A stretch of DNA of 64,000 nucleotides from an uncultured Rhizobium sp. (GCA_964492925.1 CAZBMF010000001.1:3452-67451), one strand, 5' to 3'. Shown: positions 21,543 to 59,688, counted from the stretch's first letter. Notes: generated from the sequence alone by a model not told the origin. Numbers and translations are program-made.

Positions 21543-21545
21543 ATA

Positions 21546-22853
21546 ATGAAAATAGCTGTAGTTGGAACTGGTTACGTAGGTTTGGTAAGTGGAACATGTT
21601 TCGCTGAAACTGGTAATGATGTAATTTGTGTAGACATTGATCAAAGCAAAGTTGATCGGTTGAGCAATGGTCAAATTACCATTTTTGAACCAGGTCTAGA
21701 GGTATTGTTTAAACGTAATTTAAAAGAAGGGCGTTTGAAATTTACAACCAATTTGGAAGAGGCAATTAAAGATAGCTTGGTTATCTTTTTGGCCTTACCA
21801 ACACCTCCAGGTGAGGATGGATCAGCCGATTTGCGCTATGTTTTAGGTGTGGCTGATCATTTGGGTAAAATCATGACAGGTTACAAGGTTATTGTAGATA
21901 AAAGCACAGTGCCTGTTGGAACTGCCGACAAAGTGCATGCTGCAATTGCGGCGAACTATAAAGGTGAATTTGACGTTGTTTCAAACCCTGAATTTTTGCG
22001 TGAAGGGGTTGCTGTAGACGATTTCATGAAACCTGATAGGGTTGTCATTGGAGCGGCTTCTGCTAGAGCGTTTGAAGTGATGGATGAGCTTTATGCTCCT
22101 TATGTGCGTCAAGGCAATCCTGTGATGCACATGGATACCCGCAGTGCTGAGTTAACAAAATATGCTGCAAACAGCTTCTTGGCAACAAAAATTTCATTCA
22201 TGAATGAAATTGCACGGTTGTGTGAATTGTTGGGTGCCGATGTTGACATGGTGAGAAAAGGTGTAGGTAGCGATGACAGAATTGGAAAAAGATTTTTATT
22301 CCCAGGAATTGGATATGGTGGAAGTTGTTTCCCGAAGGATGTGAAAGCGCTGGTGCATAGTGCGTCGGAGGTGAATTATGATTTCAAAATTTTGAAAGCC
22401 GTTGAAGATGTGAATGCAGATCAAAAGAAAGCTTTGTTGCCTAAAATTGATCAACATTTTGGTAGCATTGCCGGTAAAAAAGTAGCATTATGGGGATTGG
22501 CTTTTAAACCTAACACCGATGATATTCGTGAAGCTCCAGCTTTGGAAATGATTGATGCCATCATGGAAAGAGGTGCCACTGTTTCTTGCTATGATCCAGA
22601 AGCAATGCCAAATGTGAAGCAAATTCTTGGCGATAAAGTGGCATTTTGTGAAACCAGTTACGCCGCTTTAGAAGGTGCTGATTTCTTAATTATTGCCACA
22701 GAATGGCCAGAATTTAGAACCCCTGATTTCGATAAAATTGCTGGCTTATTGAGTGAAAAGGTTATCTTTGACGGAAGAAACTTATTTGACCTTGAGGTAG
22801 TTCGTAAACATGGGTTTACTTACTATAGCATTGGTAGACAAGATATTAAATGA
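21546..22853 (+). CDS. ugd: UDP-glucose 6-dehydrogenase
   Basis: Rossmann '[16 protein letters not shown]' and catalytic Cys context '[11 protein letters not shown]'. Confidence 0.9.
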
Positions 22854-43598: not shown

Positions 43599-44857
43599 AG
43601 ATTTTGTGGTTTACAAATACGCCTTGTGGTGCATCAGAATATTTAGGTTTAAGTCAATCTAGTGGTGGTTGGTTGGTTTCTTTAGAGAAATTGGTTGGAG
43701 ATGATTGCGAATTGCACATTGCATTTTATCATCATCAAAATATAAGTCCTTTCAAAATCAATCAAACAACCTATCATCCAATTTATATTCACGAAAATAT
43801 TTTCCAAAAAATTAAAAAATTATGGAAGAAAGATTTTTTAAATGCAAAGAATATTGATGCTATTAAAAGTATTGCAATTAAATTAGATCCAGATATTATT
43901 CATATTCATGGTACTGAGAATGATTTTTTAAAAATATTGGATTTCACAACTGTACCCGTAATTGTATCTATACAAGGTATTGTTTCATCTGTTTTTCATT
44001 TTTTTACATCAGGTTTTTCAAAAGAAATACTTTGTACAGTAAAAAATAAAAATTTACTATATCACATTTTTGGAATTGGATTGTTTGAAAAAATGATGAT
44101 AGATTTAAAAGAAAGAATGTGGATAGAAGAAAAGTATCTGGGAAAAGTAAAATACTTTTTTGGTAGAACTGATTGGGATAAAAGTCTCACCAGAGTATTT
44201 GCGCCAAACTCACATTATTTTGTTTTAAATGAAGCACTTAGAGAAAGTTTTTATACAGCATCCATTAAACAATCATATCAAACTTCAAACAAAATAAAGT
44301 TGTTTTCAATTTGTTCTAATGCCCCCAACAAAGGATTTGACGTCATTCTGAATTCGATTATTTTTTTGAAAAAATTAAATATTCCGTTTGATTGGGTTGT
44401 TGCTGGAATGAACAATTCAGATGAAATAGTAAACCTGTCGTTGAAAAAATTTGAATATTCAAAAATTCCAGCCGAATTACAATTAATTGGTCATTGTGAT
44501 GAATCAAAACTTACATCTTATTTATTAGATTCTGATATTTTTATTTGTCCTTCCTATATAGAAAATAGCCCTAATAGTTTAAGTGAAGCAATGATGATTG
44601 GTTTGCCATGTGTGGCTTCGAATGTAGGTGGAATTCCCTCTTTGATTGAACATCAAAAATCGGGATTGTTATTCAATTCCGGAGACCATTTGATGTTAGT
44701 TGCCAATATTTTGGAACTAATAAAAAATGAATCTATGAGACGTGAGTTCGGCCAGAATGCACGAAAAAAAGCATTAGAATTCCATGAAAAAAGCAACATT
44801 AAGCAGCAATTGTTAACCGCTTATGAATTTCTAATTTCAAATGAACATGGTAAATAG
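43595..44857 (+). CDS. Glycosyltransferase family 4 (GT-B)
   Basis: C-terminal 'FICPSYIENSPNSLSEAMMIGLPCVASNVGGIPSLIEHQKSGLLF' (EX7E region). Confidence 0.85.
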   Translation: MKILWFTNTPCGASEYLGLSQSSGGWLVSLEKLVGDDCELHIAFYHHQNISPFKINQTTYHPIYIHENIFQKIKKLWKKDFLNAKNIDAIKSIAIKLDPDIIHIHGTENDFLKILDFTTVPVIVSIQGIVSSVFHFFTSGFSKEILCTVKNKNLLYHIFGIGLFEKMMIDLKERMWIEEKYLGKVKYFFGRTDWDKSLTRVFAPNSHYFVLNEALRESFYTASIKQSYQTSNKIKLFSICSNAPNKGFDVILNSIIFLKKLNIPFDWVVAGMNNSDEIVNLSLKKFEYSKIPAELQLIGHCDESKLTSYLLDSDIFICPSYIENSPNSLSEAMMIGLPCVASNVGGIPSLIEHQKSGLLFNSGDHLMLVANILELIKNESMRREFGQNARKKALEFHEKSNIKQQLLTAYEFLISNEHGK

Positions 44858-45437
44858 AATTTTAAATAGGATAGATTTGATTTTGAATGAATTATTCATG
44901 AAAATATATACCATTTTTGTATACATTGAATGTAAATTAAAAAATATTGAGATTGAAAACAATAATAAATTCTACGGTCGTTTAAAAATTTTCAAATCAA
45001 ATAACTCTATGATATCCATAGGACATTTTAATGTATTTCGTTCAGGCAAGTTTTCGAATTTAATTGGCGTTAATCGACCCTGTATAATATCCACTTTATC
45101 TGAAAATGCAAACTTGAAAATTGGAAATAATTCTGGTTTCAGTGGTACTGTAATCAATTGTTTTTTGGAAATTAAAATAGGTAACAATGTAATGGTAGGG
45201 GCCAATACGTTAATCATGGATGGCGATTGGCATCAGGAAGATAATAGATCTGGAGTGGCTAATCCAATTATTATTGGAAACAATGTTTGGATTGGTGAAG
45301 GGGTCAAAATATTAAAAGGCGTGACAATTGGTGAAAATTCGGTTATTGGGGCAGGAAGTATTGTTACAAGAAATATTCCAAGCAATGTTTTTGCAGCAGG
45401 TAATCCTTGTAAAGTGATTAGAAATTTAAATGATTAA
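44841..45437 (+). CDS. Left-handed beta-helix (hexapeptide-repeat) O-acetyltransferase, WcaF/WbbJ-like
   Basis: Hexapeptide repeats 'IGNNVMVGANTLI...IIGNNVWIGEGVKILKGVTIGENSVIGAGSIV' and a C-terminal 'AAGNPCKVIR'. Confidence 0.8.
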   Translation: MNMVNRILNRIDLILNELFMKIYTIFVYIECKLKNIEIENNNKFYGRLKIFKSNNSMISIGHFNVFRSGKFSNLIGVNRPCIISTLSENANLKIGNNSGFSGTVINCFLEIKIGNNVMVGANTLIMDGDWHQEDNRSGVANPIIIGNNVWIGEGVKILKGVTIGENSVIGAGSIVTRNIPSNVFAAGNPCKVIRNLND

Positions 45438-46635
45438 AAAGAACATATTGTTTTTGCATGAAGGTACATTTCCGGAAGGATTTGCAATGGCATTTAGGTT
45501 GAAAATGTACTTTAAAATGTTGGATGATAATTTGTTTAATTACAAAATTATAGTGCCGCGAAAATCAACAATCGCTTCTATTGAAAACAATGATTCACAT
45601 ATAGATTATTTGTGGAAAGAGGTGGTTCCTCAAAATAAATTTCTCAGAAAGTTTTTATATATAATTCAAGACTTTAAATGGACCATTCAATTATTTAAAA
45701 ATAGGAAGAATATAGATGTGATATTTGTAGCGGCTATGTCTATTTTCCCTCTATTTTTAATTACCTTAATTTCTAAAATTTTGGGAAAGAAAGTGATATT
45801 GGAATTGAATGAATATCCTTATTCAAGTCAAGGTGGTAACGCTTTAGATGATTTAGAAATTTATAAAAAATATAGAAGATTTATCACAGAGAAATTTATT
45901 TATAAAAATATTTATGGTGTGGTCTCTATTTCTCCCAAACTTAGTGAATATATCATAAAAATTAATAATCAATTAAAAGTGGTTGAAATACCAGTTTTAT
46001 GTGACGTTGATTATTTTAAAAATATAGAATCACTTAGTCCTACAGAAAAGAAGGTACCAACCCACAAATTTACTGTTCATGCGAGTAATTTGAGTGAATA
46101 TAAGGATGGTTTTAGTACAAATTTAAAGGCCATTGGAGAATATAATCAATCGGTTCAGGAAATTGAAAATAAAATCCATTTAATCATCACCTTGAATGGC
46201 ATTCCTCATTTATTGGAATCTAGTTTAAGACCTATTATTGATCATTATCAGTTAAATGATTATTTACATTTTGTAGGATATTTAGATGAAAGTGAACTTT
46301 ATAATTTGTATAAAAACGCTGAATTTTTAATCATTAATAAACCCGATAATCTTCAAAATACTTATAATTTTCCAACCAAATTATCGGAATATTTATACTT
46401 TGGGAAAATACTGTTGGTTTCTACAAATCATGCTATGGATCAGTATTTAGAGAAAAATGTTCATTGTAAGAAGTTTGAATCGAACAATTTCGAAGAATTA
46501 ACATCGTTCATCCAGGAAACAATGAGTTTGATAAACAATTTTTCCTATCGAGAAGCTTCTCAGCGATTGGTTGAAAACGAATTTGATTACAAATCAAACG
46601 CCAATGAATTTAATCAATATTTTACACAAATTTGA
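45430..46635 (+). CDS. Putative glycosyltransferase (divergent GT4-like)
   Basis: 401 aa. C-terminal 'FLIINKPDNLQNTYNFPTKLSEYLYFGKILLV' resembles the GT4 EX7E motif. Otherwise weak. Confidence 0.45.
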   Translation: MIKKNILFLHEGTFPEGFAMAFRLKMYFKMLDDNLFNYKIIVPRKSTIASIENNDSHIDYLWKEVVPQNKFLRKFLYIIQDFKWTIQLFKNRKNIDVIFVAAMSIFPLFLITLISKILGKKVILELNEYPYSSQGGNALDDLEIYKKYRRFITEKFIYKNIYGVVSISPKLSEYIIKINNQLKVVEIPVLCDVDYFKNIESLSPTEKKVPTHKFTVHASNLSEYKDGFSTNLKAIGEYNQSVQEIENKIHLIITLNGIPHLLESSLRPIIDHYQLNDYLHFVGYLDESELYNLYKNAEFLIINKPDNLQNTYNFPTKLSEYLYFGKILLVSTNHAMDQYLEKNVHCKKFESNNFEELTSFIQETMSLINNFSYREASQRLVENEFDYKSNANEFNQYFTQI

Positions 46636-47738
46636 AAAATACAATTCTTAATTTTATTAAAAATCTAGGTCCTAACATTCAAACACCTATGGTGATTTTT
46701 GAATCGGATGATTGGGGATCTTTTAGAATACCAAATAATGAAGTTTATGCCGCTTTAGAATCCAAAGGAATTAAATTAAAATTCCCTGGTTCTGATCAAT
46801 ACAATTTGTATGATAACTTAGAGTCAACTTCTGATTTGGAAAACTTATTTGAAGTATTAAGTTCTTTTAAGGATGTACATGGGAATACTGCAAAATTTAC
46901 CCCCTTGGCATTGGTAGCAAATCCTAATTTCAATAAAATTTCTAATTCTGGATTTTCAGAATATCATTACATGAATTTACAAGATTCATACAATTATTAT
47001 CAAAAAGGTGATGTATTAAACTTGTTTAAGATTGGAATAAAAGAAGGGTTATTTATACCACAATTTCACGGACGTGAACATTTGAACGTAGCAGTTTGGT
47101 TAAGGGCATTGAATCAAAACATTGGAGATTCTAGAGTTGCCTTTGAGCATGAAGTTTGGGGTCACATTAACACTCATCCTAGAAATATATTTTATCAAGC
47201 TGCTTTTGATTTAGAATATTTAGATGATGTAGACTCACAGAAAGAGATTATCCAAGATGGATTAACATTGTTTGAAAGTACTTTTGGATATCGGGCGCAA
47301 TATTTTGTCCCTCCAAATGGACCAATGAACAATGCATTGTTGCCGGTCTTGAAAAATTGTGGCATAGATTTGGTATCATCCGATACTGTGCAAGTTGAAG
47401 TTCTCGGAAATGGACGAACAAAAAAACACTTCCGATATATGGGGATGAAAAATAAATATGCTCAAACTTTCATCAAAAGAAATTGCTTTTTCGAACCAGC
47501 TGGGAACGATAAAGATTGGATTGATAGTTGTTTGAGGGATATTGAATTGGCATTTAAAAATGGTAAACCAGCTGTAATTAGTACGCATAGAGTGAATTAT
47601 GTTGGTGATAGAAGCCTCACAAATAGAGTTCAAGGATTAAAACAATTGACCGCTCTAATTCAGAAAATGTTAATTAAATGGCCGAATCTTGAATTTGGCA
47701 CAACGCCCATTTTACTTGATAAATTCCGTAAGAATTGA
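46632..47738 (+). CDS. Uncharacterised conserved protein, paralog A (CE4/NodB-like motifs?)
   Basis: 368 aa. Shares 'ESDDWGS', 'ANPNF.KI..SGF.EY.Y', 'PQFHGREH.NV..W', 'GKPA.I..HRVN.VG' and 'KWP..EF' with the next ORF. Confidence 0.5.
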   Translation: MKNTILNFIKNLGPNIQTPMVIFESDDWGSFRIPNNEVYAALESKGIKLKFPGSDQYNLYDNLESTSDLENLFEVLSSFKDVHGNTAKFTPLALVANPNFNKISNSGFSEYHYMNLQDSYNYYQKGDVLNLFKIGIKEGLFIPQFHGREHLNVAVWLRALNQNIGDSRVAFEHEVWGHINTHPRNIFYQAAFDLEYLDDVDSQKEIIQDGLTLFESTFGYRAQYFVPPNGPMNNALLPVLKNCGIDLVSSDTVQVEVLGNGRTKKHFRYMGMKNKYAQTFIKRNCFFEPAGNDKDWIDSCLRDIELAFKNGKPAVISTHRVNYVGDRSLTNRVQGLKQLTALIQKMLIKWPNLEFGTTPILLDKFRKN

Positions 47739-48847
47739 AATTTATAGACCAAATAAAGCATCATTCAGTTTCGATTCCAGGTTTTCGGACGAAAAAGAAA
47801 TTGGTTGTTATTGAGTCAGACGACTGGGGGTCACAAAGAATACCGAGTAAACAAGTTAGGGATAAATTAATCCAAAATAATTTACTAGACGTTAGAAATA
47901 AGATAAATTTCTTAGACACATTAGAATCTAAAGAAGATTTAATTTCACTCTACGATTGTTTGTTAAAATTCAAGGATAAAAATGGCAATCATCCCATTAT
48001 TACAGCAAATTTTTTGACGGCGAATCCAGATTTTGATAAAATTAAATCCTCTGGATTTACTGAATATTATTACGAAACAATTGATAAAACTTATGCAAAA
48101 AACACGGCAGAAGATTTAAATATGTTGGAGGTGATAAAAGATGGAATGTTGCAAAATATTTTCAGGCCGCAGTTTCATGGAAGAGAACATGTAAATGTTA
48201 ACTTATGGATGAAGCAGTTGAGAAATCAAAATTCCGTATCATCGAAATCATTTGATTCTAGTGTTTATTGCTTAGATGATACTAGTATAAGCAAGAGGTC
48301 AAATTTAATGGCATCTTTTGACTATCAAACAGTTGAAGAAATCGAGGAAATTAACAACATTTTTGTTGACGGATTTCAGCATTTCGAACAATTATTTGGC
48401 TTCAAATCGAAATCTTTTATTGCCCCGTGCTATGTTTGGGGAGAACAACTTGAGAAAACGGCTTTTGATAAAGGGATAAAATTATTTCAAGGTATTTACA
48501 ATCAATATATACCCAATCCACAAGGTGATAAATATCGTTTAAATTGGCATTTTAACGGCGCGCAAAACAAAAATGGCCAATTTTATTTTGTTAGAAATGC
48601 GTTTATGGAATTGTTTGAAAACGATAAAATAGACCATGTAGAGGCTTGCTTAAAACGAATGGAAATAGCATTCACCTGGGGGAAACCTGCCATAATTGGC
48701 ATGCATAGGGTGAATTTTGTGGGTGGTTTGGAAATAAAAAATCGCCAGAATACACAAACCAAACTTGAAGAATTATTTAAAAAAATGTTAAAAAAATGGC
48801 CGGATATTGAATTTATTTCAACCGATCAATTAATCAATTATATTTAA
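47735..48847 (+). CDS. Uncharacterised conserved protein, paralog B of 46632..47738
   Basis: 370 aa. About 30% identity to the upstream ORF and the same motif set. Tandem duplication with a 4-nt overlap. Confidence 0.5.
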   Translation: MKFIDQIKHHSVSIPGFRTKKKLVVIESDDWGSQRIPSKQVRDKLIQNNLLDVRNKINFLDTLESKEDLISLYDCLLKFKDKNGNHPIITANFLTANPDFDKIKSSGFTEYYYETIDKTYAKNTAEDLNMLEVIKDGMLQNIFRPQFHGREHVNVNLWMKQLRNQNSVSSKSFDSSVYCLDDTSISKRSNLMASFDYQTVEEIEEINNIFVDGFQHFEQLFGFKSKSFIAPCYVWGEQLEKTAFDKGIKLFQGIYNQYIPNPQGDKYRLNWHFNGAQNKNGQFYFVRNAFMELFENDKIDHVEACLKRMEIAFTWGKPAIIGMHRVNFVGGLEIKNRQNTQTKLEELFKKMLKKWPDIEFISTDQLINYI

Positions 48848-49965
48848 TGGCATTCGAAAACAAACACATTATTGACTTACAACCTTACAAAGTTGCCAGC
48901 CATAAAATTTGGGAAGTAGATCCAAACGACAGAAACACGGTATTGAAATTAGACTGGAATGAGGCTACAATACCACCGAGTCCGTTGGTGAAATCTAGAA
49001 TCATGGAACTTGTAAGTGAATCTTCTTTTTATCAGTTTTATCCTTCAACTCATAGTGAAACTCTTCTTGCGAAACTTTGTGATTATGCTGGAGTTATGTC
49101 TGATAATCTTCAGTATTTCCCTAGTTCTGATAGCTTACATGAATACATTGCAACTGTTTTTTTAAGTGAAAAGGATACAGTACTCATGTTGGGACCTACC
49201 TATGATAATTTCAGGTTAACTTGTGAATCACATGGTGCGAAATCTTGTTATTTTAATTATGGCGATAATTTTGAATTAAATGAAGGCTTATTTGAGTCTG
49301 AAATTTCAAAATTGAATCCTAAATTGGTGTATATCTGTAATCCGAATAATCCAACCGGCAATTTAATTTCTGAATCTTATATAGAACATTTATTGAGATT
49401 ATTTCCCAATTCATTGTTTCTGATTGATGAGGCGTATACAGAATTTAGTGGGCATTCTGTTAAAGATTTGGTGGTTCAATATGATAACATATTAATCACC
49501 AGAACTTTGTCAAAGGCGTTTGCTTTGGCAAATTTTAGAATTGGCTACTTAATTGCTCCAGCTGAAATCATTAAAAACATATCCAAGATAAGAAATCCCA
49601 AAAACTTTACAACATTTTCACAAGAAGCAACAATTGCTGCGCTTTCAGATGTACAATACATGCGTGATTATGTGGAAAATGTAAAATTGGCAAAAGGGAA
49701 ATTTATTGACTTTCTCAGGGAAAATTATCAGCAAATTCAGCCGTATGATGGATTTGGAAATTTTATATTAATTAAATTTCCTAATGATAATTTGAAGGGG
49801 GCATTTCTGAACCACATGGAAAATAATAATATTTTTCTAAGAAATTTAACTCATAGTTCACTGTTGAATAATTGTTTGAGGATTACAATTGGTACAATTG
49901 AACAAATGCAAATTGTACAAAATAGAATAGCAGAATTTTGGTCAACTTTTCAAACAAAGATTTAA
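48847..49965 (+). CDS. HisC/CobD-family PLP-dependent enzyme (class I/II aminotransferase fold; aminotransferase or phospho-amino-acid decarboxylase)
   Basis: 372 aa. 'VYICNPNNPTGN', 'LIDEAYTEF' and 'ITRTLSKAFALANFRIGY' (PLP-Lys in the SKAF context) are typical of the histidinol-phosphate aminotransferase / threonine-phosphate decarboxylase family. Confidence 0.8.
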   Translation: MAFENKHIIDLQPYKVASHKIWEVDPNDRNTVLKLDWNEATIPPSPLVKSRIMELVSESSFYQFYPSTHSETLLAKLCDYAGVMSDNLQYFPSSDSLHEYIATVFLSEKDTVLMLGPTYDNFRLTCESHGAKSCYFNYGDNFELNEGLFESEISKLNPKLVYICNPNNPTGNLISESYIEHLLRLFPNSLFLIDEAYTEFSGHSVKDLVVQYDNILITRTLSKAFALANFRIGYLIAPAEIIKNISKIRNPKNFTTFSQEATIAALSDVQYMRDYVENVKLAKGKFIDFLRENYQQIQPYDGFGNFILIKFPNDNLKGAFLNHMENNNIFLRNLTHSSLLNNCLRITIGTIEQMQIVQNRIAEFWSTFQTKI

Positions 49966-50624
49966 TTTTATTCGATTTCTGTGAGACGTTGGTAGATTTC
50001 CAAACTGCCGACGCTTACGTTGATTTTGTGAGAAAGAACATTGATTCTCCCAGAATGCAATTTTTGGAATTCACACTGAAATTATTCAAAAAAATTAAAA
50101 TTATTTCCCTCTGTTACAAATTTTTCCCTAATAAATCAATTGAAAAGAGATTGAAATTGTATCAATTGAAAGGATTAAACGAAATTATTTTAAAAGATTT
50201 AGCTGGTTTATTTTATTCTTTAGAAGTAAAACCAAATTTAATACCAGAAACCCTTGAATTAATGAATGACTGTATAAAAAAGAACTGTGAAGTAGTTCTA
50301 ATTTCAGGGGGATATTCAATATATCTGCAACATTTTTGTAATGAATATCATATTAAAAAATTATACTCTACTGATGTAGCCTTTAGTGAAAATAAATGTA
50401 GTGGTAAAATATTGGGTTTAGATTGTTTGTTTGAGAATAAAGTAACTTTGATTGAAAATGGAGGATTAAACCTTAGTGACTATGAAACAAAAGTCGTGTT
50501 TACCGACAGTTCATCAGATCTTCCTTTACTTAATTGGGCCGATAAAGGTTTCGTTATTTCTAAAAATATTCCACAATCTTGGGCTACAGAGTTAAATTTT
50601 GAACAAATAATCTGGAGAAAATGA
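49938..50624 (+). CDS. HAD-superfamily hydrolase (putative phosphatase)
   Basis: TTG start. N-terminal motif I 'LILFDFCETLVDF'. Later 'VVLISGGY' (motif II-like) and 'VFTDSSSDLPLL' (motif IV-like). Confidence 0.55.
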   Translation: MVNFSNKDLILFDFCETLVDFQTADAYVDFVRKNIDSPRMQFLEFTLKLFKKIKIISLCYKFFPNKSIEKRLKLYQLKGLNEIILKDLAGLFYSLEVKPNLIPETLELMNDCIKKNCEVVLISGGYSIYLQHFCNEYHIKKLYSTDVAFSENKCSGKILGLDCLFENKVTLIENGGLNLSDYETKVVFTDSSSDLPLLNWADKGFVISKNIPQSWATELNFEQIIWRK

Positions 50625-51559
50625 AACAAATATTTAGAGAATTAAAGTATAAAGGTATTTTTGGTTTTTACTTGTATATATTCATTGTTAAAGTATATAA
50701 AATTTGTGTCAATTATTCTATTTCCGATCGAAAGTATATCAGTCGTAAATTTAAATTTTATCATGGTTACGATTTAAATTGGAATAAACTTGAAACACTC
50801 AATGAAAAAATGCAGTGGTTTAAAATTTACGATCGTAATGAGCGTTATGTAGCTTTGTCTGATAAATTTAAGGCGCGTGATTTTTTTAAAAATAAATTTG
50901 GCGAAGAATATTTAGTGCCTTTGGTGTTAGAAACACAATGCGTTGAAGATTTGAATTTTGATAATTTTCCAGATTATCCGGTAGTTGTTAAAGCCAATCA
51001 CGATTCTGGTAATTATCGCATTGTTAGAGATAAAAATGAAATTGATTTTAGAAAACTTCAAGTTGATGCCAAAGCTTGGTTGAAATTCAATTATTATTGG
51101 GAAGATCGTGAATGGCCTTACAAGCATATTGAACCAAGAATTGTGGTTGAAAAAATGCTTCAAACCAATGAAGGTAAAATCCCAAACGACTATAAATTGA
51201 ATTGTTTTAATGGAAAAGTGGAATTTGTGTATGTATCTGTAGATCGTGAAGGTATTAATAAGAGAAATATTTACAGCAGGGATTGGGAGCCATTATATTT
51301 TACTTGGAATAAAAAATATTACGATCACAGCAATCTAAGAGGACCTGAAATTAAAGCGCCATCTACTTTTGCGAAAATGATTGAATTTGCTGAAATCATT
51401 GCCAAGGATTACCAATATGTGCGGGTGGATTTTTATGATGTAGATGGACACTTATATTTCGGTGAAATTACGCAATACCATGGCGGTGGATTTGATCAAA
51501 TGTTGCCCAAAGAATGGGATTATAAATTTGGTAATATGATATCAATAAATGCCGATTAA
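50621..51559 (+). CDS. TupA-like ATP-grasp amidoligase family protein
   Basis: 312 aa. 'LNEKMQWFKIYDRN', 'EEYLVPLV', 'WEDREWPYKHIEPRIVVEKML', 'NDYKLNCFNGKVEFVYV' and 'VRVDFYDVDGHLYFGEITQYHGGGF' match the family signature as I recall it (ATPgrasp_TupA). Confidence 0.65.
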   Translation: MKQIFRELKYKGIFGFYLYIFIVKVYKICVNYSISDRKYISRKFKFYHGYDLNWNKLETLNEKMQWFKIYDRNERYVALSDKFKARDFFKNKFGEEYLVPLVLETQCVEDLNFDNFPDYPVVVKANHDSGNYRIVRDKNEIDFRKLQVDAKAWLKFNYYWEDREWPYKHIEPRIVVEKMLQTNEGKIPNDYKLNCFNGKVEFVYVSVDREGINKRNIYSRDWEPLYFTWNKKYYDHSNLRGPEIKAPSTFAKMIEFAEIIAKDYQYVRVDFYDVDGHLYFGEITQYHGGGFDQMLPKEWDYKFGNMISINAD

Positions 51560-52424
51560 TTCAGCTAATTCCCCTTTAATTAGCGTATTAATGCCAATTT
51601 ATAATGGAGTTGATACTGTTAAATTTGCTGTTTATTCACTGCAGCTTCAAACATATAAAAATTGGGAATTAATTGTTGTAAATGATGGTTCAACCGATGG
51701 GACCTTTGAATATTTAAATCAATTGGTGTTAATCGATAAGAGGTTCAAAGTCATACACTTATATAAAAACAAGGGCAGAGGATTTGCTAGAAATGTATGT
51801 TTAGACAATGCACATGGAGAATACATTGCATTTCTGGATGCCGATGATATTTACTTACCCAATAAATTGGAAAAGCAAGTTTCTTTTCTAATAAATAACC
51901 CTCAAATTACTTTGGTAGGTTGTGGAGTTGGAATAATGGATGTACAAGATAAAATCAAGTATGTTAGAGGTAACCTAGGGGGTGTTTTTCTGCATCAAGA
52001 TCATCAAAATTTGAACTTTGTTGCCCCAAGTGTTATGTTTAGAAGAGCAGACTTAAATGGGTTAAAATATCATCCAAAGTTAGATGTTATGGAGGATGTT
52101 GACTTTTTTAATAGATTGTTGTTGAATAAGAAATATTCTAACATACAAGACATTATTTACTTATACGCTGAAATTGGATTAATTTCAAATTCGAAATTTT
52201 TAAAGTACTCATGGCATACCATAAAGTATTATTTATTTTTTGTAGGTCAAAAAATAACGTTGATAGGTTCGCTTGTGAAATCTATTTTTAATTTTTTCAG
52301 CAAATGTATTTTAATTCAATTCGTTGGTGTTGATTTTTTTCTTAAAAAGAGAAGCAGAATGATTGATGAGGAGTCACAATTATTGTTAGAAAATTATTTA
52401 TCAGAAATTAGAAATAAAAGTTGA
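51549..52424 (+). CDS. Glycosyltransferase family 2
   Basis: 'LISVLMPIYNGVDTVKFAVYSLQLQTYKNWELIVVNDGSTDGT' and the DxD 'FLDADDIY'. Confidence 0.85.
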   Translation: MPINSANSPLISVLMPIYNGVDTVKFAVYSLQLQTYKNWELIVVNDGSTDGTFEYLNQLVLIDKRFKVIHLYKNKGRGFARNVCLDNAHGEYIAFLDADDIYLPNKLEKQVSFLINNPQITLVGCGVGIMDVQDKIKYVRGNLGGVFLHQDHQNLNFVAPSVMFRRADLNGLKYHPKLDVMEDVDFFNRLLLNKKYSNIQDIIYLYAEIGLISNSKFLKYSWHTIKYYLFFVGQKITLIGSLVKSIFNFFSKCILIQFVGVDFFLKKRSRMIDEESQLLLENYLSEIRNKS

Positions 52425-53491
52425 AAGTAGTATTTGTAACCACATCATTTTTAGTAGGAGGATTAGAGCGTTCTAGTGCGAATATTGCTAATTTTTTGTG
52501 CAATCAACCTGATGTGGAATTGGTTGTAATAACTCAGTATAAATTTAAACATTTCTACCATTTGGATGAACGAATTCGGATCGTAGAACCTGAATTTAAA
52601 AAAGATGGTATTTCTAAGTTATTGTATTACTTAAAAATAGTGTTCTTTTTTAGAAAATACTTGAAAATTGAAAAACCTGATGTTGTTCTCAGCTTTGGTG
52701 AGTATTGCAATTTTCAGGTTTTATTGGCTGGATTGAATCTCAATATTCCCATTGTTATTTCTGATAGGGCAAGTCCAATTTTGGAAATTGCTTTTCCAAC
52801 CAACGTATTTCGAAAACTAACCTATCCTTGGGCATCTGGTTTTATTGCCCAAACCGATAGAATGAAACAATCGTTGAAATTGAAATTTGGAATCAAAAGT
52901 CCTATTCAGGTTATTCAAAATGCATTACGATCAGTACAGTTGTATCCAGAAATTAATCGAAGAAATCAAATTATTGCAGTTGGTAGAATCCATCCAATTA
53001 AGCAGTTCGATAAATTAATTGAAGCTTTTGAAAATGCTCAAACCAAAGATTGGGAGTTACTCATTATTGGTGATGGAGTAGATCGAGAAAAAATTCTGAA
53101 CTTGATTGAAAAAAGTCCCAAACGAGCTTATATCAAATTTGAATCTAAAACATTAGAAATTGACAAACGATTTGCAGAGTCTAAAATATTTGTTTTAACA
53201 TCGCAAAGTGAAGGATTTCCAAATTCATTGTGTGAAGCCATGGCAGCGGGACTTGTTTGTGTGAGTTTAGATATTGTAGCTGGTCCTCGTGAAATTATTC
53301 AAGACGGAATAAATGGAATATTGGTTCCGGAAAAGGACTTCAAAGAGTTAACCCAAAAAATTTCTCAAATTATAGAGGATGAATCAAGCTTTGAGCACTT
53401 GGGGACAAACGCATTAAAATTGGCAAATGAACTGTCAATTTCTAAAATTGGAAACCAATATTATGAATTTTTAAAAAGTCAAATCAAATAA
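52421..53491 (+). CDS. Glycosyltransferase family 4
   Basis: 'FVLTSQSEGFPNSLCEAMAAGLVCVSLDIVAGPREIIQDGINGILV' EX7E region. Confidence 0.85.
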   Translation: MKVVFVTTSFLVGGLERSSANIANFLCNQPDVELVVITQYKFKHFYHLDERIRIVEPEFKKDGISKLLYYLKIVFFFRKYLKIEKPDVVLSFGEYCNFQVLLAGLNLNIPIVISDRASPILEIAFPTNVFRKLTYPWASGFIAQTDRMKQSLKLKFGIKSPIQVIQNALRSVQLYPEINRRNQIIAVGRIHPIKQFDKLIEAFENAQTKDWELLIIGDGVDREKILNLIEKSPKRAYIKFESKTLEIDKRFAESKIFVLTSQSEGFPNSLCEAMAAGLVCVSLDIVAGPREIIQDGINGILVPEKDFKELTQKISQIIEDESSFEHLGTNALKLANELSISKIGNQYYEFLKSQIK

Positions 53492-53495
53492 ACAC

Positions 53496-54677
53496 ATGAA
53501 AAATCTCAGCATACTCATTATATCGGTGTTTGGTAAGGTTAGGGAAGAGAGTAACGATAGGGTGAATAATTTGTATGATTTTTCTCCTTTTAAAACTAAA
53601 AAAATTGTAACCACTAATTTTAGTCATCACAACAAAGCCAAAAGGGTTGGTGAAGATATTCGAAATGTAGACTACATAAATGTCCCTCAATATTCAAAAA
53701 ACTTGAGTTTAAAACGGATATTTAGTCATTGGGTTTTTGCGATAAAGCTATATTTTTATTTAAGAAAACTAACCGATAAACCAGATATCATTTATTGTGT
53801 TTTGCCTACTCCTAGCTCAGGATACATTGCGGGTTTATATGCCAAGAAACACAACATTACGTTTGTTACAGATGTAATTGATGTGTGGCCTGATGGATTA
53901 TTTCCCATAAATTCAACCTTTAAAAAACTGCAGTTTTTGTTTAAACCTTGGGAATTGTTATCGGCTAAGGTCTATAGAATGTCTGACTTTATATGTGCTG
54001 CAAATCGAAGTTATGCTAAAATTGCCCGACAATATGTAGGGAATATTCCTGTGAAACATTTTTATCTTGGCACAAGTTTTGATGAAGATGAAAATAAAAC
54101 CACCCAGTTAACGAAAATTACAAAGCCCGATGGAGAAATTTGGATTGCTTATGGTGGAAATTTAGGGCATTTATATGATTTTGATTTGATGATTGATGGA
54201 ATAGTGGAAGCTGCAAAAATGACACAAAAGAAATTGCGATTTCTGTTGGTTGGAGGAGGTGTTTTAGAAAATGATCTAAGACAAAAACTGGCGTTAGTTA
54301 GTCATATCGAATACACAGTAACCGGGAATGTTGGTTATAATGAATTTATGGATTACATGCGAAGCAGCGATATCTGTTTGAATATTTTTAAATCAAATGC
54401 ATTAATTTCAATGAGTTACAAGCTCTATGATTATTTTGCTGCAAAAGCATTTGTTATCAATAATTTAATTGGCGATGCCGATGAAATTATTGATGAGTTT
54501 GAAGTTGGATATACCGTAAATCAATCAAATTTTAGTTCTAAACTTGCTCATGCAATTGAACAATTACCGGAATTTGAGAAACACAAACAAGAAAAATTTA
54601 AAAAAGTGTACGACTTATTAGATCGTAAGAAAATTATACAATCAATCTACCAATTTATACAAAATGAAAACCGTTAA
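53496..54677 (+). CDS. Glycosyltransferase family 4 (WbuB-like)
   Basis: 'ISMSYKLYDYFAAKAFVINNLIGDADEII' EX7E-like region and an N-terminal GT-B Rossmann half. Confidence 0.7.
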   Translation: MKNLSILIISVFGKVREESNDRVNNLYDFSPFKTKKIVTTNFSHHNKAKRVGEDIRNVDYINVPQYSKNLSLKRIFSHWVFAIKLYFYLRKLTDKPDIIYCVLPTPSSGYIAGLYAKKHNITFVTDVIDVWPDGLFPINSTFKKLQFLFKPWELLSAKVYRMSDFICAANRSYAKIARQYVGNIPVKHFYLGTSFDEDENKTTQLTKITKPDGEIWIAYGGNLGHLYDFDLMIDGIVEAAKMTQKKLRFLLVGGGVLENDLRQKLALVSHIEYTVTGNVGYNEFMDYMRSSDICLNIFKSNALISMSYKLYDYFAAKAFVINNLIGDADEIIDEFEVGYTVNQSNFSSKLAHAIEQLPEFEKHKQEKFKKVYDLLDRKKIIQSIYQFIQNENR

Positions 54678-55302
54678 ATTTGACTCTCAAAAACTTAACT
54701 TTAAAGCTAAATTCGAACAATTTTTGAATTTGGGATTACTCGAAAATTTAAATCTTGAAATTGAGGTTTTAAAACGTGAAAATGATCAAAAAACTCCAAT
54801 CCATAAGGTTTATTATGAGTGGGCTAGAACAGAAGAATTCCAGGCTTTATATTTGGAATTATTAAGAGATTACGTGAAGCCTCTTTATGGTGGTGAACAA
54901 ATTGTGTTTCAAAAAATTCCAACATTTAGGGTGGCATTCCCTCATAATATTGCCGTTGGTGAGTTTCACAAAGACAAAGCCTACAGAGACTTATCATGGG
55001 CAGAACAAGTAAAAGAAGACAATTTTTATTTGCCGTTTACAGACGCATTTGATACCAACACTATATGGGTAGAATCTGAAGAAGATAAAGGCGATTTTGC
55101 TCCAATGAATTGTGAGTATGGATGCACCATTCAATGGGATGGAAGCAATTTAATGCACGGTAACAAAATCAATGAAACAGGAAAAGCGCGCGTTAGCGTT
55201 GATTTTAGGGTTATCAAAATGTCGAATTATGTGCCAAGCACCAAAGGTTCTATCAACATGAATGTTGGTTTTGCAATTGGTGGATACTACGATGTCATCT
55301 AA
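54664..55302 (+). CDS. Hypothetical protein (possible cupin / Fe(II)-2OG-oxygenase-like HxD...H triad)
   Basis: 212 aa. 'GEFHKDKAY' (H-x-D) and a downstream 'SNLMHGN'. No secure family assignment. Confidence 0.35.
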
Positions 55303-55918
55303 TTCTGTCTCAAAAATTTTGTACTTGTTTATCAAATCATTCTTTGATTTTGTTTTTGCTTTTATTCTTTTTACGTTCTCCATTCCAATTTGGTTGTGGT
55401 TGTTGATTAAGTTTAAATTTGACTTAAAAAAAATTATTTTTCTTCAACCAAGACCAGGTAAAAATGGGAAAATATTCAATCTTATAAAGTTTAAAACTAT
55501 GACCGATGAAAAAGATGAAAACGGTAAACTTTTGCCGGATAGATTGAGGTTGACATCCTTTGGAAGGTTTCTTCGTGCTTCTTCGTTTGATGAATTACCA
55601 CAAATGATCAATGTTATGATGGGTGATATGAGTTTAATAGGTCCGAGGCCGCTTTTGGTATCATATTTGCCTTTGTATAATGAACGACAAATGAGAAGAC
55701 ATGAGGTGAAACCGGGTATTACAGGATGGGCCCAAATAAATGGAAGAAATGAACTTTCTTGGACCGATAAATTCGAACAAGATGTATTTTACGTTGAAAA
55801 TATATCGTTAAAATTAGATTTGAAAATATTTTGGGGAACAATTTTAAACGTTGTCTCTCGTCAAGGTATCAGTGGAGAAGGAACTGAAACAATGACACCA
55901 TTTACAGGAAATAATTGA
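55292..55918 (+). CDS. Undecaprenyl-phosphate sugar phosphotransferase, small monotopic PglC/WecP-like initiating transferase
   Basis: N-terminal re-entrant helix '[31 protein letters not shown]'. '[17 protein letters not shown]', '[21 protein letters not shown]' and '[13 protein letters not shown]' are canonical Bac_transf motifs. Confidence 0.85.
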
Positions 55919-56568
55919 TCATGATGAAACCAATTTTAATTTATGGCGCTGGGGGTTTTGGTAAAGAAGTTGCTTGCTTAATCAATGAAATTAATGAAAT
56001 TGAACCCACATGGGAAATTTTAGGTTATATCGACGATGGAGTTAATCCGGGTACCGAAATTAAATATGGCAGTGTTTTGGGGGGATTGGATTATTTGAAT
56101 CAACAACCTTCCGAAATTGCTGTCGTTTTTTCAATTGCCAATGCCATTATTTTGGAAAAAGTTGTCTCTAAAATTACCAATCCGTTGGTCTATTTTCCCA
56201 ATATTATATCGCCAGGGGTAAAGTTTTATGACACTCCTTCCTTTCAACTTGGACGCGGAAATGTAATTTCAAATGGTTGCAGATTTAGTTGTGACGTGAA
56301 AATTGGCGATTTCAACCTCTTCAATGGCTTTGTGGCATTAGGTCATGATGTTCATGTTGGAAGTTTCAATATTTTTAGTCCCTCTGCTAGATTGTCTGGT
56401 TCAGTATTTGTGGGGGACAAAAACTTCTTCGGGGTGAATTCTATTGTACTGCAAGGTATTAAAATTGGCAATCATACAAAGATTGGTGTAATGAGTGTAC
56501 TGATGAAAGATACAAAAGATGGATATTTGTATTTCGGAAATCCAGCACGAAAATTAACAGAACAATGA
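55915..56568 (+). CDS. NeuD/PglD/WlbB-family sugar N- or O-acyltransferase (LbH)
   Basis: '[17 protein letters not shown]' N-terminal Rossmann-like domain followed by hexapeptide repeats ('VGSFNIF...[28 protein letters not shown]'). Confidence 0.8.
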
Positions 56569-57632
56569 GTTTTTTAAACATTTCAAATGTTAAAATTGCA
56601 GGAATTGCCTCCTGTGTCCCTCAAGAAAAAATTGAGAATTTAAATGCTGCAATTTTTGATTCACCAGAGGAAGCGCAGCGATTTGTAGATACAACAGGCA
56701 TTAAAAAACGACGTGTAGTTGGCAATCAGCGAATTTGTACATCTGATTTGTGTGTTCAAGCGGCAGAAAAATTGTTGTTGGAATTAAATTGGTCAAAGGA
56801 GGAAGTTGATTGTTTAATTTTTGTAACGCAAACACCGGATTATATTTTACCAGCCACTTCGTGCATCATTCAAAACAGGTTGGGATTGTCTAAAGATTGT
56901 TATTCTTTGGATATATCTTTGGGTTGCAGTGGATGGGTTTATGGATTATCGGTTATTGCATCTTTGATGCAAAGTGGCATGTTTAAAAAGGGTTTATTGC
57001 TTGTTGGCGATACAACCACGGTTACCAAATCGGCCAAAGATAAAAGTACCTTTCCGCTATTTGGGGATGCTGGTACTTGCACATCGTTGGAATTCCAACA
57101 AGGTGCTGCGAATATGTATTTTCATTTCGGTACCGATGGGTCTGGTTTTGAATCTATTATGATCAAAGATGGTGGATTTAGACATCCATTTTCGGAAGAG
57201 TCATTAAAAGAGAAAGAATTTCCTAATGGAATCATTAGAAATGACTTACAAAGTATATTGAATGGTGCAAATGTATTTACTTTTGGCATTGGAAGGGCAC
57301 CAAAATCTGTTAAAGCATTGTTGGAAAAGTTTGATTTAGAGCTAGAAAACGTTGATTACGGATTGTTTCATCAGGCAAACATGATGATGAATGAAAAAAT
57401 TCGAAATAAACTTGGCTTGAGCCCAGAAAAAGTACCTTATTCAATTGATGAATTTGGGAACACATCTTCGGCTTCAATTCCGTTAACCATGAACTATAAA
57501 TTGTCTGAAAATTTGAAAAACAGCAAAAATAAATTCATTGCGTGTGGTTTTGGTGTGGGATTGTCGTGGGGAAGTGTTTATTTTGAAACAGATAAAATTA
57601 TTTGTCCTGAAATTCAGGAATATAAAAATTAA
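56565..57632 (+). CDS. 3-oxoacyl-ACP synthase III (KAS III / FabH-like), copy 1
   Basis: Catalytic triad contexts 'GCSGWVYGL' (Cys), 'HQANMMMNE' (His) and 'FGNTSSASIPL' (Asn). Confidence 0.85.
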   Translation: MSFLNISNVKIAGIASCVPQEKIENLNAAIFDSPEEAQRFVDTTGIKKRRVVGNQRICTSDLCVQAAEKLLLELNWSKEEVDCLIFVTQTPDYILPATSCIIQNRLGLSKDCYSLDISLGCSGWVYGLSVIASLMQSGMFKKGLLLVGDTTTVTKSAKDKSTFPLFGDAGTCTSLEFQQGAANMYFHFGTDGSGFESIMIKDGGFRHPFSEESLKEKEFPNGIIRNDLQSILNGANVFTFGIGRAPKSVKALLEKFDLELENVDYGLFHQANMMMNEKIRNKLGLSPEKVPYSIDEFGNTSSASIPLTMNYKLSENLKNSKNKFIACGFGVGLSWGSVYFETDKIICPEIQEYKN

Positions 57633-57636
57633 AAAA

Positions 57637-57864
57637 ATGGAACAAAACTTTATTAAACTTTTTGCAGAAACTTTAGAAATTGAAGATAGAGAAATTTCTT
57701 TAAACGATACATTTAGAGATTACCCTGAGTGGGATTCATTGGCATTACTTTCGGTAATTGCCATGATAGATGATGAATATGATGTGATCATCGAAGGCAA
57801 TGATTTTGCTGAATTAAAAACAATTGGCGATTTGATTGAAGCCATTCAAAAAGCAAAAGAATAA
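57637..57864 (+). CDS. Acyl carrier protein (dedicated, locus-associated)
   Basis: 75 aa, acidic. Phosphopantetheine-attachment context 'YPEWDSLALLSVI' (DSL). Confidence 0.8.
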   Translation: MEQNFIKLFAETLEIEDREISLNDTFRDYPEWDSLALLSVIAMIDDEYDVIIEGNDFAELKTIGDLIEAIQKAKE

Positions 57865-57865
57865 T

Positions 57866-58924
57866 TTGGCAATATTAAAATTTAACGGTGTTGGAATAAC
57901 GGCAATGGCTGGTGCTGTTCCGAAGAACATTGTTAAAAATTTGGAATATACCACCTTTTTCAACGAGCAAGATGTTCAAGAAATCGTTGAAAAAACAGGA
58001 ATATTTGAAAGGAGATTTGCTCCTGAAGGAATGTGTGCAAGCGATTTGTGCTTTGCAGCGGCAGAACAGTTAATCTCAGACAATAAGATTGACAAATCTG
58101 AAATAGATTTGCTCATTTTTATCTCTCAGACGGCTGATTTTAGGATGCCGGCAACTGCTATACTTTTACAAGATAGGTTGGGACTGTCGAAATCCACAAT
58201 GGCTTTTGATATAAGTTTGGGCTGTTCAGCGTTTGTTTATGGTTTGTCGGTGGTTTATTCTTTGATGGAAAGGAGTGGTTTCCGAAAAGCTTTAATTTTA
58301 GACGGTGAAACACGTTCAAGAATTTACCATCCTAAAGATCGAAAGACGGCTTTTTTATTTGGGGATGCTGGAGTTGCAGCTTTAGTAGAAAGGGATGAGA
58401 AATTTGGAGATAGCTTTTTCTCTTTGGGAAGCGACGGTTCCAAATCTCAACTAATTTCGATGAAAGCGGGAGGCTATCGATATCCGAGTAGCGTTGAAAC
58501 TTTAACGGAAAAGGTGATTGATGAGTTTGGCAATATATCAACTGATGAACATGGAAGAATGGATGGTGGAGAGGTGTTTAATTTTGTTTTGAAGGAAATT
58601 CCAAGCCATGTAAAAGAATTACTGTTGGAATCGAAAATGAGTCAAGATAGCATTGACTTTTTTGTATTTCATCAAGCCAATTTGTTTATGAATGGTTATT
58701 TGCAAAAAAAGTTCAAAATTGAAGATTCGAAATTTCCATTATCAATAAGCAAGTTTGGAAATACTTCTTCCGTATCTATACCCTTGACCATTGTAAGTGA
58801 GTTAAAAAACAAATTATCGGGTCACAATCAATTGTTGTTATGCGGATTTGGAGTGGGTATGAGTTGGGCAAGTTGTGTCATAAACACGAATGAAATTAGA
58901 ATATCTCAATTATTAGAAATATGA
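57866..58924 (+). CDS. 3-oxoacyl-ACP synthase III (KAS III / FabH-like), copy 2
   Basis: 'GCSAFVYGL', 'HQANLFMNG' and 'FGNTSSVSIPL'. Start is uncertain: TTG at 57866 directly after the ACP stop, or TTG at 57836 overlapping the ACP. Confidence 0.8.
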   Translation: MAILKFNGVGITAMAGAVPKNIVKNLEYTTFFNEQDVQEIVEKTGIFERRFAPEGMCASDLCFAAAEQLISDNKIDKSEIDLLIFISQTADFRMPATAILLQDRLGLSKSTMAFDISLGCSAFVYGLSVVYSLMERSGFRKALILDGETRSRIYHPKDRKTAFLFGDAGVAALVERDEKFGDSFFSLGSDGSKSQLISMKAGGYRYPSSVETLTEKVIDEFGNISTDEHGRMDGGEVFNFVLKEIPSHVKELLLESKMSQDSIDFFVFHQANLFMNGYLQKKFKIEDSKFPLSISKFGNTSSVSIPLTIVSELKNKLSGHNQLLLCGFGVGMSWASCVINTNEIRISQLLEI

Positions 58925-59688
58925 GTCATCCATTTGATTTAACAGGTAAAAGAATATTGGTTACAGGCGCTTCATCGGGAATTGGAAGGGCCGTTGCAAT
59001 TGAATGCAGCAAAATGGGTGCTGAGATGATTTTGCTTGGTCGAAATGAAGAAAGATTACAGGAAACATTATCACAATTGACTCAAGTTAGCGGAAATCAT
59101 CATTTTTTTTCGATGGATTTATCTGGAGAATTGAATTTTGAACTTTTACAAAATTTAATTGATACAACTGGTAAACTTGATGGATTGGTAAATTGTGCTG
59201 GTATTACTTCAACATTACCAATCAAAAGCATTACAAAGAAAAGGCTCACGGAAATTTTTGAAATCAATGTATTCGGTGCTATTGAAGTTTCTAGGTGGTT
59301 TACAAAAAAATCGGTTGTTAATGAGGGTGGTGGTTCCATTATTTTCATGACTTCTATCATGGCAAATGTTGGTGAAGTAGGTAAAACTTTGTATTCAATG
59401 TCTAAAGGGGCATTGTTGTCAGGAATGAGGTCGATGTCATTGGAGCTGGCGCCAAAAAAAATTAGGGTAAATGCAATTTCACCGGGTGTAGTTTATACAC
59501 CAATGGTTGAAAATGGTGTGTATGCACAAGACCCTAAATTATTTGAAAATGTATTGATGAAACATCCATTAGGCATAGGTGAAGTAAATGATGTTGCGAA
59601 TGCAGTTGTTTATTTTATGAGTGATGCATCAAAATGGGTTACAGGCACCAATTTTATCATTGATGGTGGCTATACTGCCGGTAAATAG
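58921..59688 (+). CDS. SDR-family 3-oxoacyl-ACP reductase (FabG-like)
   Basis: 'VTGASSGIGRAVA', 'NCAG' and 'YSMSKGAL' (YxxxK). Confidence 0.85.
   Translation: MSHPFDLTGKRILVTGASSGIGRAVAIECSKMGAEMILLGRNEERLQETLSQLTQVSGNHHFFSMDLSGELNFELLQNLIDTTGKLDGLVNCAGITSTLPIKSITKKRLTEIFEINVFGAIEVSRWFTKKSVVNEGGGSIIFMTSIMANVGEVGKTLYSMSKGALLSGMRSMSLELAPKKIRVNAISPGVVYTPMVENGVYAQDPKLFENVLMKHPLGIGEVNDVANAVVYFMSDASKWVTGTNFIIDGGYTAGK

Follow-up and report, generated by a model that had tools for sequence, protein, structure and literature searches.

A predicted serinol uronamide cassette in a Wzx/Wzy-type polysaccharide locus: a counterpart in Bacteroidota of the Campylobacter jejuni pathway

The window analysed here is a stretch of 64,000 nucleotides (nt) deposited as DNA of an uncultured Rhizobium sp. 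(GCA_964492925.1 CAZBMF010000001.1:3452-67451). Three consecutive, overlapping genes are found in it at 48847-51559, within a locus for a surface polysaccharide. They encode a HisC-like enzyme dependent on pyridoxal phosphate (PLP), a phosphatase of the haloacid dehalogenase (HAD) type and an ATP-grasp protein of the TupA-like family. On the model of the characterised enzymes of Campylobacter jejuni, the three genes are likely to constitute a self-contained cassette by which a uronic acid residue of a Wzx/Wzy surface polysaccharide, most likely glucuronic acid (GlcA), would be converted into its amide with serinol (2-amino-1,3-propanediol).

The three-gene module and its proteins

The first gene (48847..49965) has an ATG start and encodes the PLP enzyme, of 372 amino acids (aa); the second (49938..50624) has a TTG start and encodes an HAD-IB phosphatase of 228 aa; the third (50621..51559) has an ATG start and encodes a stand-alone TupA-like ATP-grasp protein of 312 aa. 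All of them are on the + strand, and the listing of open reading frames (ORFs) gives them exactly where the first-pass annotation had placed three overlapping genes. The TAA of the gene upstream and the ATG of the PLP gene have one base in common (TAATG, as read at the junction), 28 nt are shared by the PLP and HAD genes and 4 nt (ATGA) by the HAD and ATP-grasp genes; the PLP gene is in the same block as the ligase gene, parted from it only by an HAD gene that overlaps both. The module is real: ORFs of 228-372 aa are improbable by chance at a G+C content of about 31%, the Pfam and NCBIfam scores are far above chance and agree with the domain types first proposed, and the genes were found identical on 19 independently assembled metagenome contigs. 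A scan of 44000-56000 for promoters and terminators gave a number of sites not above that of shuffled sequence, and no such signal above that background separates the module from its neighbours, which fits a single long co-directional gene array.

The kinship of these genes to the glucuronamide enzymes of C. jejuni had been proposed from the beginning, and all three proteins are indeed homologous to them. In C. jejuni HS:2, Cj1437 transaminates dihydroxyacetone phosphate (DHAP) to (S)-serinol phosphate, whereas Cj1436 decarboxylates L-serine phosphate to ethanolamine phosphate. The C-terminal domain of Cj1438 (Cj1438C) amidates, at the expense of ATP, the C6 carboxylate of a GlcA that is part of the chain already, and either phosphorylated amine is accepted. 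Cj1435 acts last, hydrolysing the phosphate after ligation, and the next glycosyltransferase needs the dephosphorylated amide (PMC11800397, PMC11800379, PMC13276843); the first-pass annotation had given the reverse order, phosphatase before ligase, as established. The HS:19 counterparts of the HS:2 enzymes are HS19.10, HS19.11C and HS19.09, and the two ligases that have been characterised (Cj1438C and HS19.11C) have chain-borne GlcA as their acceptor (PMC11800397, PMC13276843). For the comparisons, Cj1438C and Cj1435 sequences were taken from the supplement of PMC12409886, and those of Cj1437, Cj1436 and again Cj1435 from a C. jejuni contig (L013).

The PLP enzyme matches Pfam Aminotran_1_2 (E 1.1e-47, 163.5 bits), and the catalytic Lys and the phosphate-binding Arg residues are conserved in it. 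Its top NCBIfam model is hisC (TIGR01141), with 250.0 bits, yet this score is under the equivalog cutoff of 276.55; Cj1437 obtains a near-equal 246.8 bits from the same model and is also under the cutoff. The CobD model (TIGR01140) gives 130.3 bits against a cutoff of 290.55. In BLASTP comparisons the protein is 44% identical to Cj1437 over 363 aa, that is, its full length (266 bits, E 3e-91), and 27% identical to Cj1436 over 200 aa only (59 bits). The identity to E. coli HisC is 31% over 298 aa (133 bits), within a range of 29-31%. Solved HisC and CobD structures are matched with at most 120 bits, HisC enzymes being the nearest, and the CobD structure 3fkd is matched with an E value of 2.8e-14. 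There are no his genes near the PLP gene, nor any cob context; its neighbours are glycosyltransferases and polysaccharide genes. By sequence, then, the protein classes as a Cj1437-type transaminase and not as a decarboxylase of the CobD/Cj1436 type. Since 44% identity to Cj1437 goes together with a weak match to Cj1436 and CobD, serinol is favoured over ethanolamine or aminopropanol, and it is most likely the amine used. The first proposal had been broader (ethanolamine, serinol, aminopropanol or a similar amine); the amino alcohol stands, and the similarity to Cj1437 narrows it to serinol.

The HAD protein is recognised by Pfam HAD (PF12710; E 1.1e-16, 62.2 bits against a cutoff of 27) and by the HAD-IB model TIGR01488 (65.3 bits against 45). 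It is 26-27% identical to Cj1435 end to end (BLASTP, E 4e-19 and 7e-20). Motif I contains the nucleophile Asp and reads F-D-F-C-E-T-L, with a Cys at Asp+2; SGGY is found as motif II and DSxSDLP as motif IV. The D-F-C-x-T pattern is common to Cj1435 and all the HAD proteins of the cassettes described below. Histidinol-phosphatase models give only 30-39 bits against cutoffs of 280-400, and the match to SerB is weak too. The protein is a Cj1435 homologue, and by this analogy it is predicted to strip the phosphate from the serinol phosphate amide after ligation. In the D-F-C-x-T pattern the Cys replaces the usual second Asp, the general acid/base, and this replacement is kept from C. jejuni Cj1435 to Bacteroidota.

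The separation of Cj1437-like proteins from HisC by mapping of active-site residues was tried and failed. The residues which we take to form the active site of E. coli HisC are Y20, Y55, D85, Y110, N157, D184, Y187, K214, R222, R322 and R335 (E. coli numbering), and every one of them that could be mapped is kept across the Cj1437-like clade, Cj1437 included. The sole clade-specific difference found was the Asp of a PTYDNF motif, beside Y110, which is invariant in the Cj1437-like clade, Cj1437 included, and absent from E. coli HisC. Because all the mapped residues are conserved, the sequence taken alone might suit histidinol phosphate or another keto-phosphate as well; the HisC residues being uninformative, the choice of substrate is based on the overall similarity to Cj1437 and on the gene context. 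Related to this, the pathway could be the same and the amine another one: histidinol phosphate formed from imidazole acetol phosphate, or phosphoserine formed from 3-phosphohydroxypyruvate, would lead to an amide of histidinol, serine or another amine. The retained substrate-binding and catalytic residues agree with this, as do the first rank of hisC among the NCBIfam models and the weak matches of the HAD protein to histidinol-phosphatase and SerB models; besides, a passage of PMC13419641 describes TupA-like ligases as thought to add various amino acids. On the other hand, the full-length identity to Cj1437 clearly exceeds that to E. coli HisC, the PTYDNF Asp is common to Cj1437, the histidinol-phosphatase scores are far under their cutoffs, and Cj1437, which scores alike on the hisC model, is yet a DHAP transaminase (PMC11800397). 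Another amine is thus considered quite unlikely, and serinol is retained in what follows.

The assignment of 50621..51559 to the TupA-like family holds, with a match to ATPgrasp_TupA (PF14305) that covers positions 1-240 of the 241 of the profile (E 6.8e-48, 163.7 bits against a cutoff of 25). It shares 32% identity with Cj1438C across 285 aa (BLASTP, E 3e-35). No match to PDB sequences was obtained at E values up to 1, and there is no TupA-like structure in the PDB. An AlphaFold2 model (predicted local distance difference test, pLDDT, 91.9) was compared with the PDB by Foldseek, and the structures retrieved were D-Ala-D-Ala ligase, RimK, LysX, synapsin and biotin carboxylase, all of them ATP-grasp enzymes.

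Conservation of the cassette across loci

Among the matches listed, at least 120 homologues of the ligase are at least 50% identical to it, and those that are named come from Bacteroidota. Four of them were sampled (77%, 58%, 54% and 52% identity); in each, PLP and HAD genes are located just upstream, and the other genes of the locus differ. One genome per species was then scanned with the ligase alignment, and 93 loci were searched by tblastn with the proteins of the window. A neighbour-joining tree of 86 ATP-grasp domains, which has no bootstrap support and is read as grouping only, places the window protein in a clade of 24 members. A PLP gene (Cj1437-like or Cj1436-like) and a Cj1435-like gene stand beside the ligase gene in all 23 assessable members of this clade; the remaining member (L024) was left out of the count because a contig end cuts its locus. 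Outside the clade, with C. jejuni set apart, such neighbours are present in none of 61 loci, which belong to marine Flavobacteriaceae, Firmicutes, Erwinia and others. The carriers within the clade are Flavobacterium, Chitinophaga, Carboxylicivirga (L096; the cultured sp. N1Y90), Prevotellaceae, Alistipes, Paludibacteraceae and other Bacteroidales, together with one metagenome-assembled genome (MAG) of Elusimicrobiaceae and one of Gastranaerophilales. From these sequence comparisons, the cassette is a common mobile block, widespread in Bacteroidota. The first-pass annotation knew of no characterised pathway of this kind in that phylum; the literature searched for one contained the C. jejuni work only, which leaves that statement in place, although the cassette itself is common there.

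Two loci of the clade, L012 (5151-7945) and L018 (4139-6930), are without a Cj1437-like gene. The PLP gene of L012 is 55% identical to Cj1436 (E 2e-154), and that of L018 was classed as Cj1436-like by its tblastn score. Both loci are predicted to carry an ethanolamine version of the cassette, nested among serinol-type loci. This exchange mirrors the two amines of C. jejuni, which argues that the PLP gene sets the amine. In addition, the Gastranaerophilales MAG (L045; CALUPO010000003.1, 3188-10048) contains an ORF of 909 aa in which a transaminase (Pfam match at 341-671) is fused to a phosphatase (691-879), behind about 300 N-terminal residues without known domain; the ligase gene comes next. 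It looks like a natural PLP-HAD fusion, although an assembly error is possible, and as such it supports a functional link between the two enzymes.

These data also bear on another explanation, in which the PLP and HAD genes are ordinary genes of histidine biosynthesis (hisC and a histidinol phosphatase) that happen to lie in the locus, and the ATP-grasp protein works independently with a common amino acid. The rank of the hisC model and the HisC enzymes as nearest solved structures are what would be expected from it. However, the hisC equivalog cutoff is not reached and no further his genes are nearby. The trio is kept as a block across phyla, in polysaccharide loci that differ otherwise, and its strict linkage within the clade has no parallel outside it. 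Besides, two loci have exchanged the PLP gene for a gene of the Cj1436-like decarboxylase type, and in L045 the PLP and HAD parts are fused beside the ligase gene. Ordinary histidine genes are accordingly regarded as highly improbable.

In L031-L060 (Winogradskyella, Maribacter, Tenacibaculum, Lacinutrix and others), the TupA-like ligases share 37-46% identity with the protein of the window and are without PLP or HAD neighbours; presumably, they use common, ready-made amino acids as the amine.

Proposed mechanism, acceptor sugar and neighbouring genes

What the sequences establish is the presence of the genes, their homologies and their conserved linkage; the substrates, the order of the steps and the acceptor sugar of the following scheme are inferred from the characterised C. 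jejuni enzymes. In the first step, the Cj1437-type transaminase (48847-49965) is predicted to convert DHAP and L-glutamate into (S)-serinol phosphate. In the second step, the TupA-like ligase (50621-51559) would spend ATP on activating the C6 carboxylate of the uronic acid, and would couple serinol phosphate to it; the acceptor would be a uronic acid already in the growing glycan, which here means a repeat unit linked to undecaprenyl diphosphate at the cytoplasmic face of the membrane. In the third step, the Cj1435-type HAD phosphatase (49938-50624) would remove the phosphate, giving a neutral serinol amide that could then be extended by the next glycosyltransferase.

The UDP-GlcA required could be supplied by ugd (21546..22853, + strand), a UDP-glucose 6-dehydrogenase gene, as it had been annotated at first, by its scores on the TuaD and TIGR03026 models. 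It obtains 553 bits from TuaD (the equivalog cutoff of 700 is not reached) and 463 bits against a cutoff of 190 from the NDP-sugar dehydrogenase model TIGR03026, whereas the UDP-ManNAc dehydrogenase model gives only 193 bits. The gene overlaps by 4 nt with uxs (22850-23833), which encodes a UDP-glucuronate decarboxylase (match to human UXS1, E 4e-105). The pair is situated about 8 kb upstream of wza and outside the capsule locus, and among the unrelated genes of the interval are those for an outer-membrane beta-barrel protein, a GLPGLI protein and an FkbM methyltransferase, as well as rlmN and der. The role first suggested for ugd, as source of UDP-GlcA, is therefore kept in the sense that it can supply this precursor, but it is not dedicated to the polysaccharide locus. 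Orthologues of ugd are found near the cassette in L045 and L026; in L045, an orthologue of uxs (53% identity) follows the ligase gene directly and the orthologue of ugd (59% identity) starts about 1 kb after it. No UDP-GlcA 4-epimerase or UDP-HexNAc 6-dehydrogenase was seen in the window, and GlcA is most likely the acceptor. A gene for a DegT-type sugar aminotransferase (20412-21542) precedes ugd and uxs; the region 20412-23833 is a UDP-xylose branch, and the glycan or another product probably contains xylose.

Several observations, together with the retained HisC residues and the lack of bootstrap support mentioned above, weigh against this scheme. The ATP-grasp protein is not grouped with Cj1438C in the tree, where Cj1438C has its own long branch, and it is closer (41-46% identity) to TupA-like proteins of Bacteroidota without PLP or HAD neighbours. 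As the ligase does not group with Cj1438C, the amine specificity is deduced from gene context and not from orthology of the ligase. Within the locus no GlcA transferase can be named, and ugd lies elsewhere, coupled to the UDP-xylose synthase gene. Finally, with an unfused ligase and a locus of the Wzx/Wzy type, the timing of the amidation is extrapolated. Most of these points would also suit a pathway in which serinol phosphate is placed on another carboxylate, that of galacturonic acid, of a 2-acetamido uronic acid, or of UDP-GlcA before glycosyl transfer: the missing transferase, the position of ugd, the absence of the GT2 fusion seen in C. jejuni and the modest identity to Cj1438C on a separate branch all allow it. 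Against this, the two characterised ligases act on GlcA in the chain (PMC11800397, PMC13276843), the enzymes that would make the alternative uronic acids were not found in the window, and ugd orthologues accompany the cassette in L045 and L026. Another carboxylate is unlikely on this evidence, and the amidation of GlcA within the chain is preferred.

If the scheme is true, the surface glycans of many uncultured Bacteroidota, and of some cultured ones, have a uronic acid neutralised with serinol or ethanolamine by the chemistry known from C. jejuni; among the related carriers are gut Alistipes, Prevotellaceae and other Bacteroidales, as well as freshwater Flavobacterium. A TupA-like ligase gene beside Cj1437-like or Cj1436-like and Cj1435-like genes would be a simple genomic marker, from which one could predict whether the amide is present and what amine it contains. 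Besides, stand-alone ligases may be more suitable for the chemoenzymatic synthesis of glycans than the fusion proteins of C. jejuni.

The Wzx/Wzy-type polysaccharide locus extends from 31029 to about 61150. It begins with wza, wzc, genes like those for a CDP-dideoxyhexose, a GT2 glycosyltransferase, a MATE-like flippase, further glycosyltransferases and an acetyltransferase. Two paralogues without Pfam family, the module, a GT2, two GT4 glycosyltransferases, a protein like 2-oxoglutarate (2OG)-Fe(II) oxygenases and a Bac_transf initiating transferase come next, and the locus ends in a block with a PglD-like protein, two ketoacyl synthases III (KAS III), a ketoreductase and DegT.

The GT2 gene that follows the module (51549..52424, + strand; Glycos_transf_2, E 8e-33) overlaps the ligase gene by 11 nt. 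Its product is 32% identical to the N-terminal GT2 of Cj1438 over 103 aa, which is a generic similarity only. Such a gene comes after the ligase gene both in the window and in its closest relatives (L005-L007), and weak GT2-like matches of 27-28% identity are seen after the ligase in L024 and L026; it is absent from most other cassette loci. The similarity being generic and the adjacency unconserved, the idea that it is the counterpart of the fused GT2 of C. jejuni was rejected. Speculatively, it possibly acts next to the amidated residue.

Further observations concern other parts of the window. A 212-aa protein encoded at 54664-55302 has a weak match to TIGR04324 ('sporadic carbohydrate cluster 2OG-Fe(II) oxygenase'; 41 bits, where the cutoff is 150), and in the related loci L005 and L008 a 212-aa gene is at the corresponding place, just upstream of the initiating transferase, the comparison being one of position and size. 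The block at 55262-61146 contains Bac_transf, a PglD-like acetyltransferase, KAS III, a short gap, a second KAS III, a ketoreductase and a DegT aminotransferase. The gap between the KAS III genes has the size of a gene for an acyl carrier protein (ACP), and an ACP gene is annotated there in L005 and L008. The block has the look of a cassette supplying an N-acylated amino sugar with which the repeat unit is primed, and parts of it recur in those related loci that reach that far (L005, L008, L012 and L095). The genes at 35446-39943 encode a nucleotidyltransferase, a short-chain dehydrogenase/reductase (SDR) like 4,6-dehydratases, a DegT/RfbH-like protein of 436 aa, a 3,5-epimerase-like protein and another SDR, and as a set they suggest that a dideoxyhexose linked to CDP is made. 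A protein of 1086 aa, encoded at 16302-19562 upstream of the sugar-nucleotide genes, contains a TMEM260-like protein O-mannosyltransferase domain (E 3.7e-67).

Immediately before the module there are two paralogous genes on the + strand (46632-47738 and 47735-48847), without Pfam family, whose products are 33% identical to each other and are predicted to have a CE4/GH57-like barrel fold. Their family has more than 5,700 proteins, with no functional name beyond 'hypothetical', and its motifs ESDDWG, PQFHGREH and HR.N are invariant. The Pfam matches, to GH57 and polysaccharide deacetylase, are weak. A profile search of the family against PDB sequences gave nothing, and the family was placed by fold search alone: with an AlphaFold2 model (pLDDT 91.7), the top Foldseek matches were ArnD and polysaccharide deacetylases; peptidoglycan deacetylases were matched as well, as were GH57 enzymes, and the TM-scores were 0.4-0.6. 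The invariant D29, D30, H148, H152, H324 and R325 would fit a metal-dependent deacetylase-like site. A gene of this family adjoins the cassette in the Flavobacterium, Chitinophaga and Carboxylicivirga loci. It is absent from the cassettes of Bacteroidales, Elusimicrobia, Gastranaerophilales and C. jejuni, and it is present without the cassette in Brumimicrobium mesophilum. For these reasons the paralogues were rejected as a fourth core member, and the gene is taken as an accessory neighbour of the cassette. There is a low probability that the true unit is different in one of two ways. In Flavobacteriia, Chitinophagia and Marinilabiliales it would have four parts, the barrel protein joining the amidation in an undescribed decoration (for example, serinol amidation could be coupled to the de-N-acetylation of a residue next to it, giving a zwitterionic motif); or else the HisC-like enzyme would supply an amine other than serinol. 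The three-gene serinol cassette is the reading that is compared below with known systems.

Comparison with known systems

The PLP enzyme has the fold type of HisC and CobD, with identical PLP-binding and phosphate-binding residues, but it differs from both in that it stays under their equivalog cutoffs and has no his or cob gene context.

The ligase resembles the TupA-like family (PF14305) in its full-length match to the model, its ATP-grasp fold and its position in a polysaccharide locus. Named members of this family are TupA of the Bacillus halodurans teichuronopeptide and WemR of Proteus mirabilis. Their predicted role is the addition of amino acids to uronic acids (Iyer et al. 2009, cited in PMC13419641). 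The subclade of the window differs from its relatives in marine Flavobacteriaceae and Firmicutes in being always linked to genes for making the amine and for dephosphorylation, which those relatives lack.

The predicted product is the same kind of decoration as that of enterobacterial O antigens such as those of E. coli O143 and Shigella boydii type 8, in which uronic acids form amides with 2-amino-1,3-propanediol. Beyond Campylobacter, the literature searched yielded nothing usable on amides of serinol or aminopropanediol, and a review of E. coli O antigens makes no mention of the amide.

The closest known system is that of C. jejuni HS:2. As in C. jejuni, the three enzyme types are clustered in a surface-polysaccharide locus, with identities of 44%, 32% and 27% for the transaminase, the ligase and the phosphatase, respectively. 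The variant of HAD motif I is identical, and the alternative between serinol and ethanolamine is mirrored in the related Bacteroidota loci. There are differences too. The ligase of the window is a stand-alone protein, whereas that of C. jejuni forms the C-terminal part of a fusion with GT2; the locus, with wza, wzc, wzx and an initiating Bac_transf, is of the Wzx/Wzy type, whereas that of C. jejuni is of the Kps ABC-transporter type; and the genes are arranged as PLP, HAD and ligase instead of ligase, PLP, PLP and HAD. As the window is also without a Cj1436 paralogue, only one amine would be expected. The GT2 fusion and the Kps context belong to the architecture of the characterised examples and are not needed for the chemistry. 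As predicted here, the module would be the Bacteroidota counterpart of the known serinol glucuronamide pathway of C. jejuni, that is, a new carrier and not a new pathway or mechanism.

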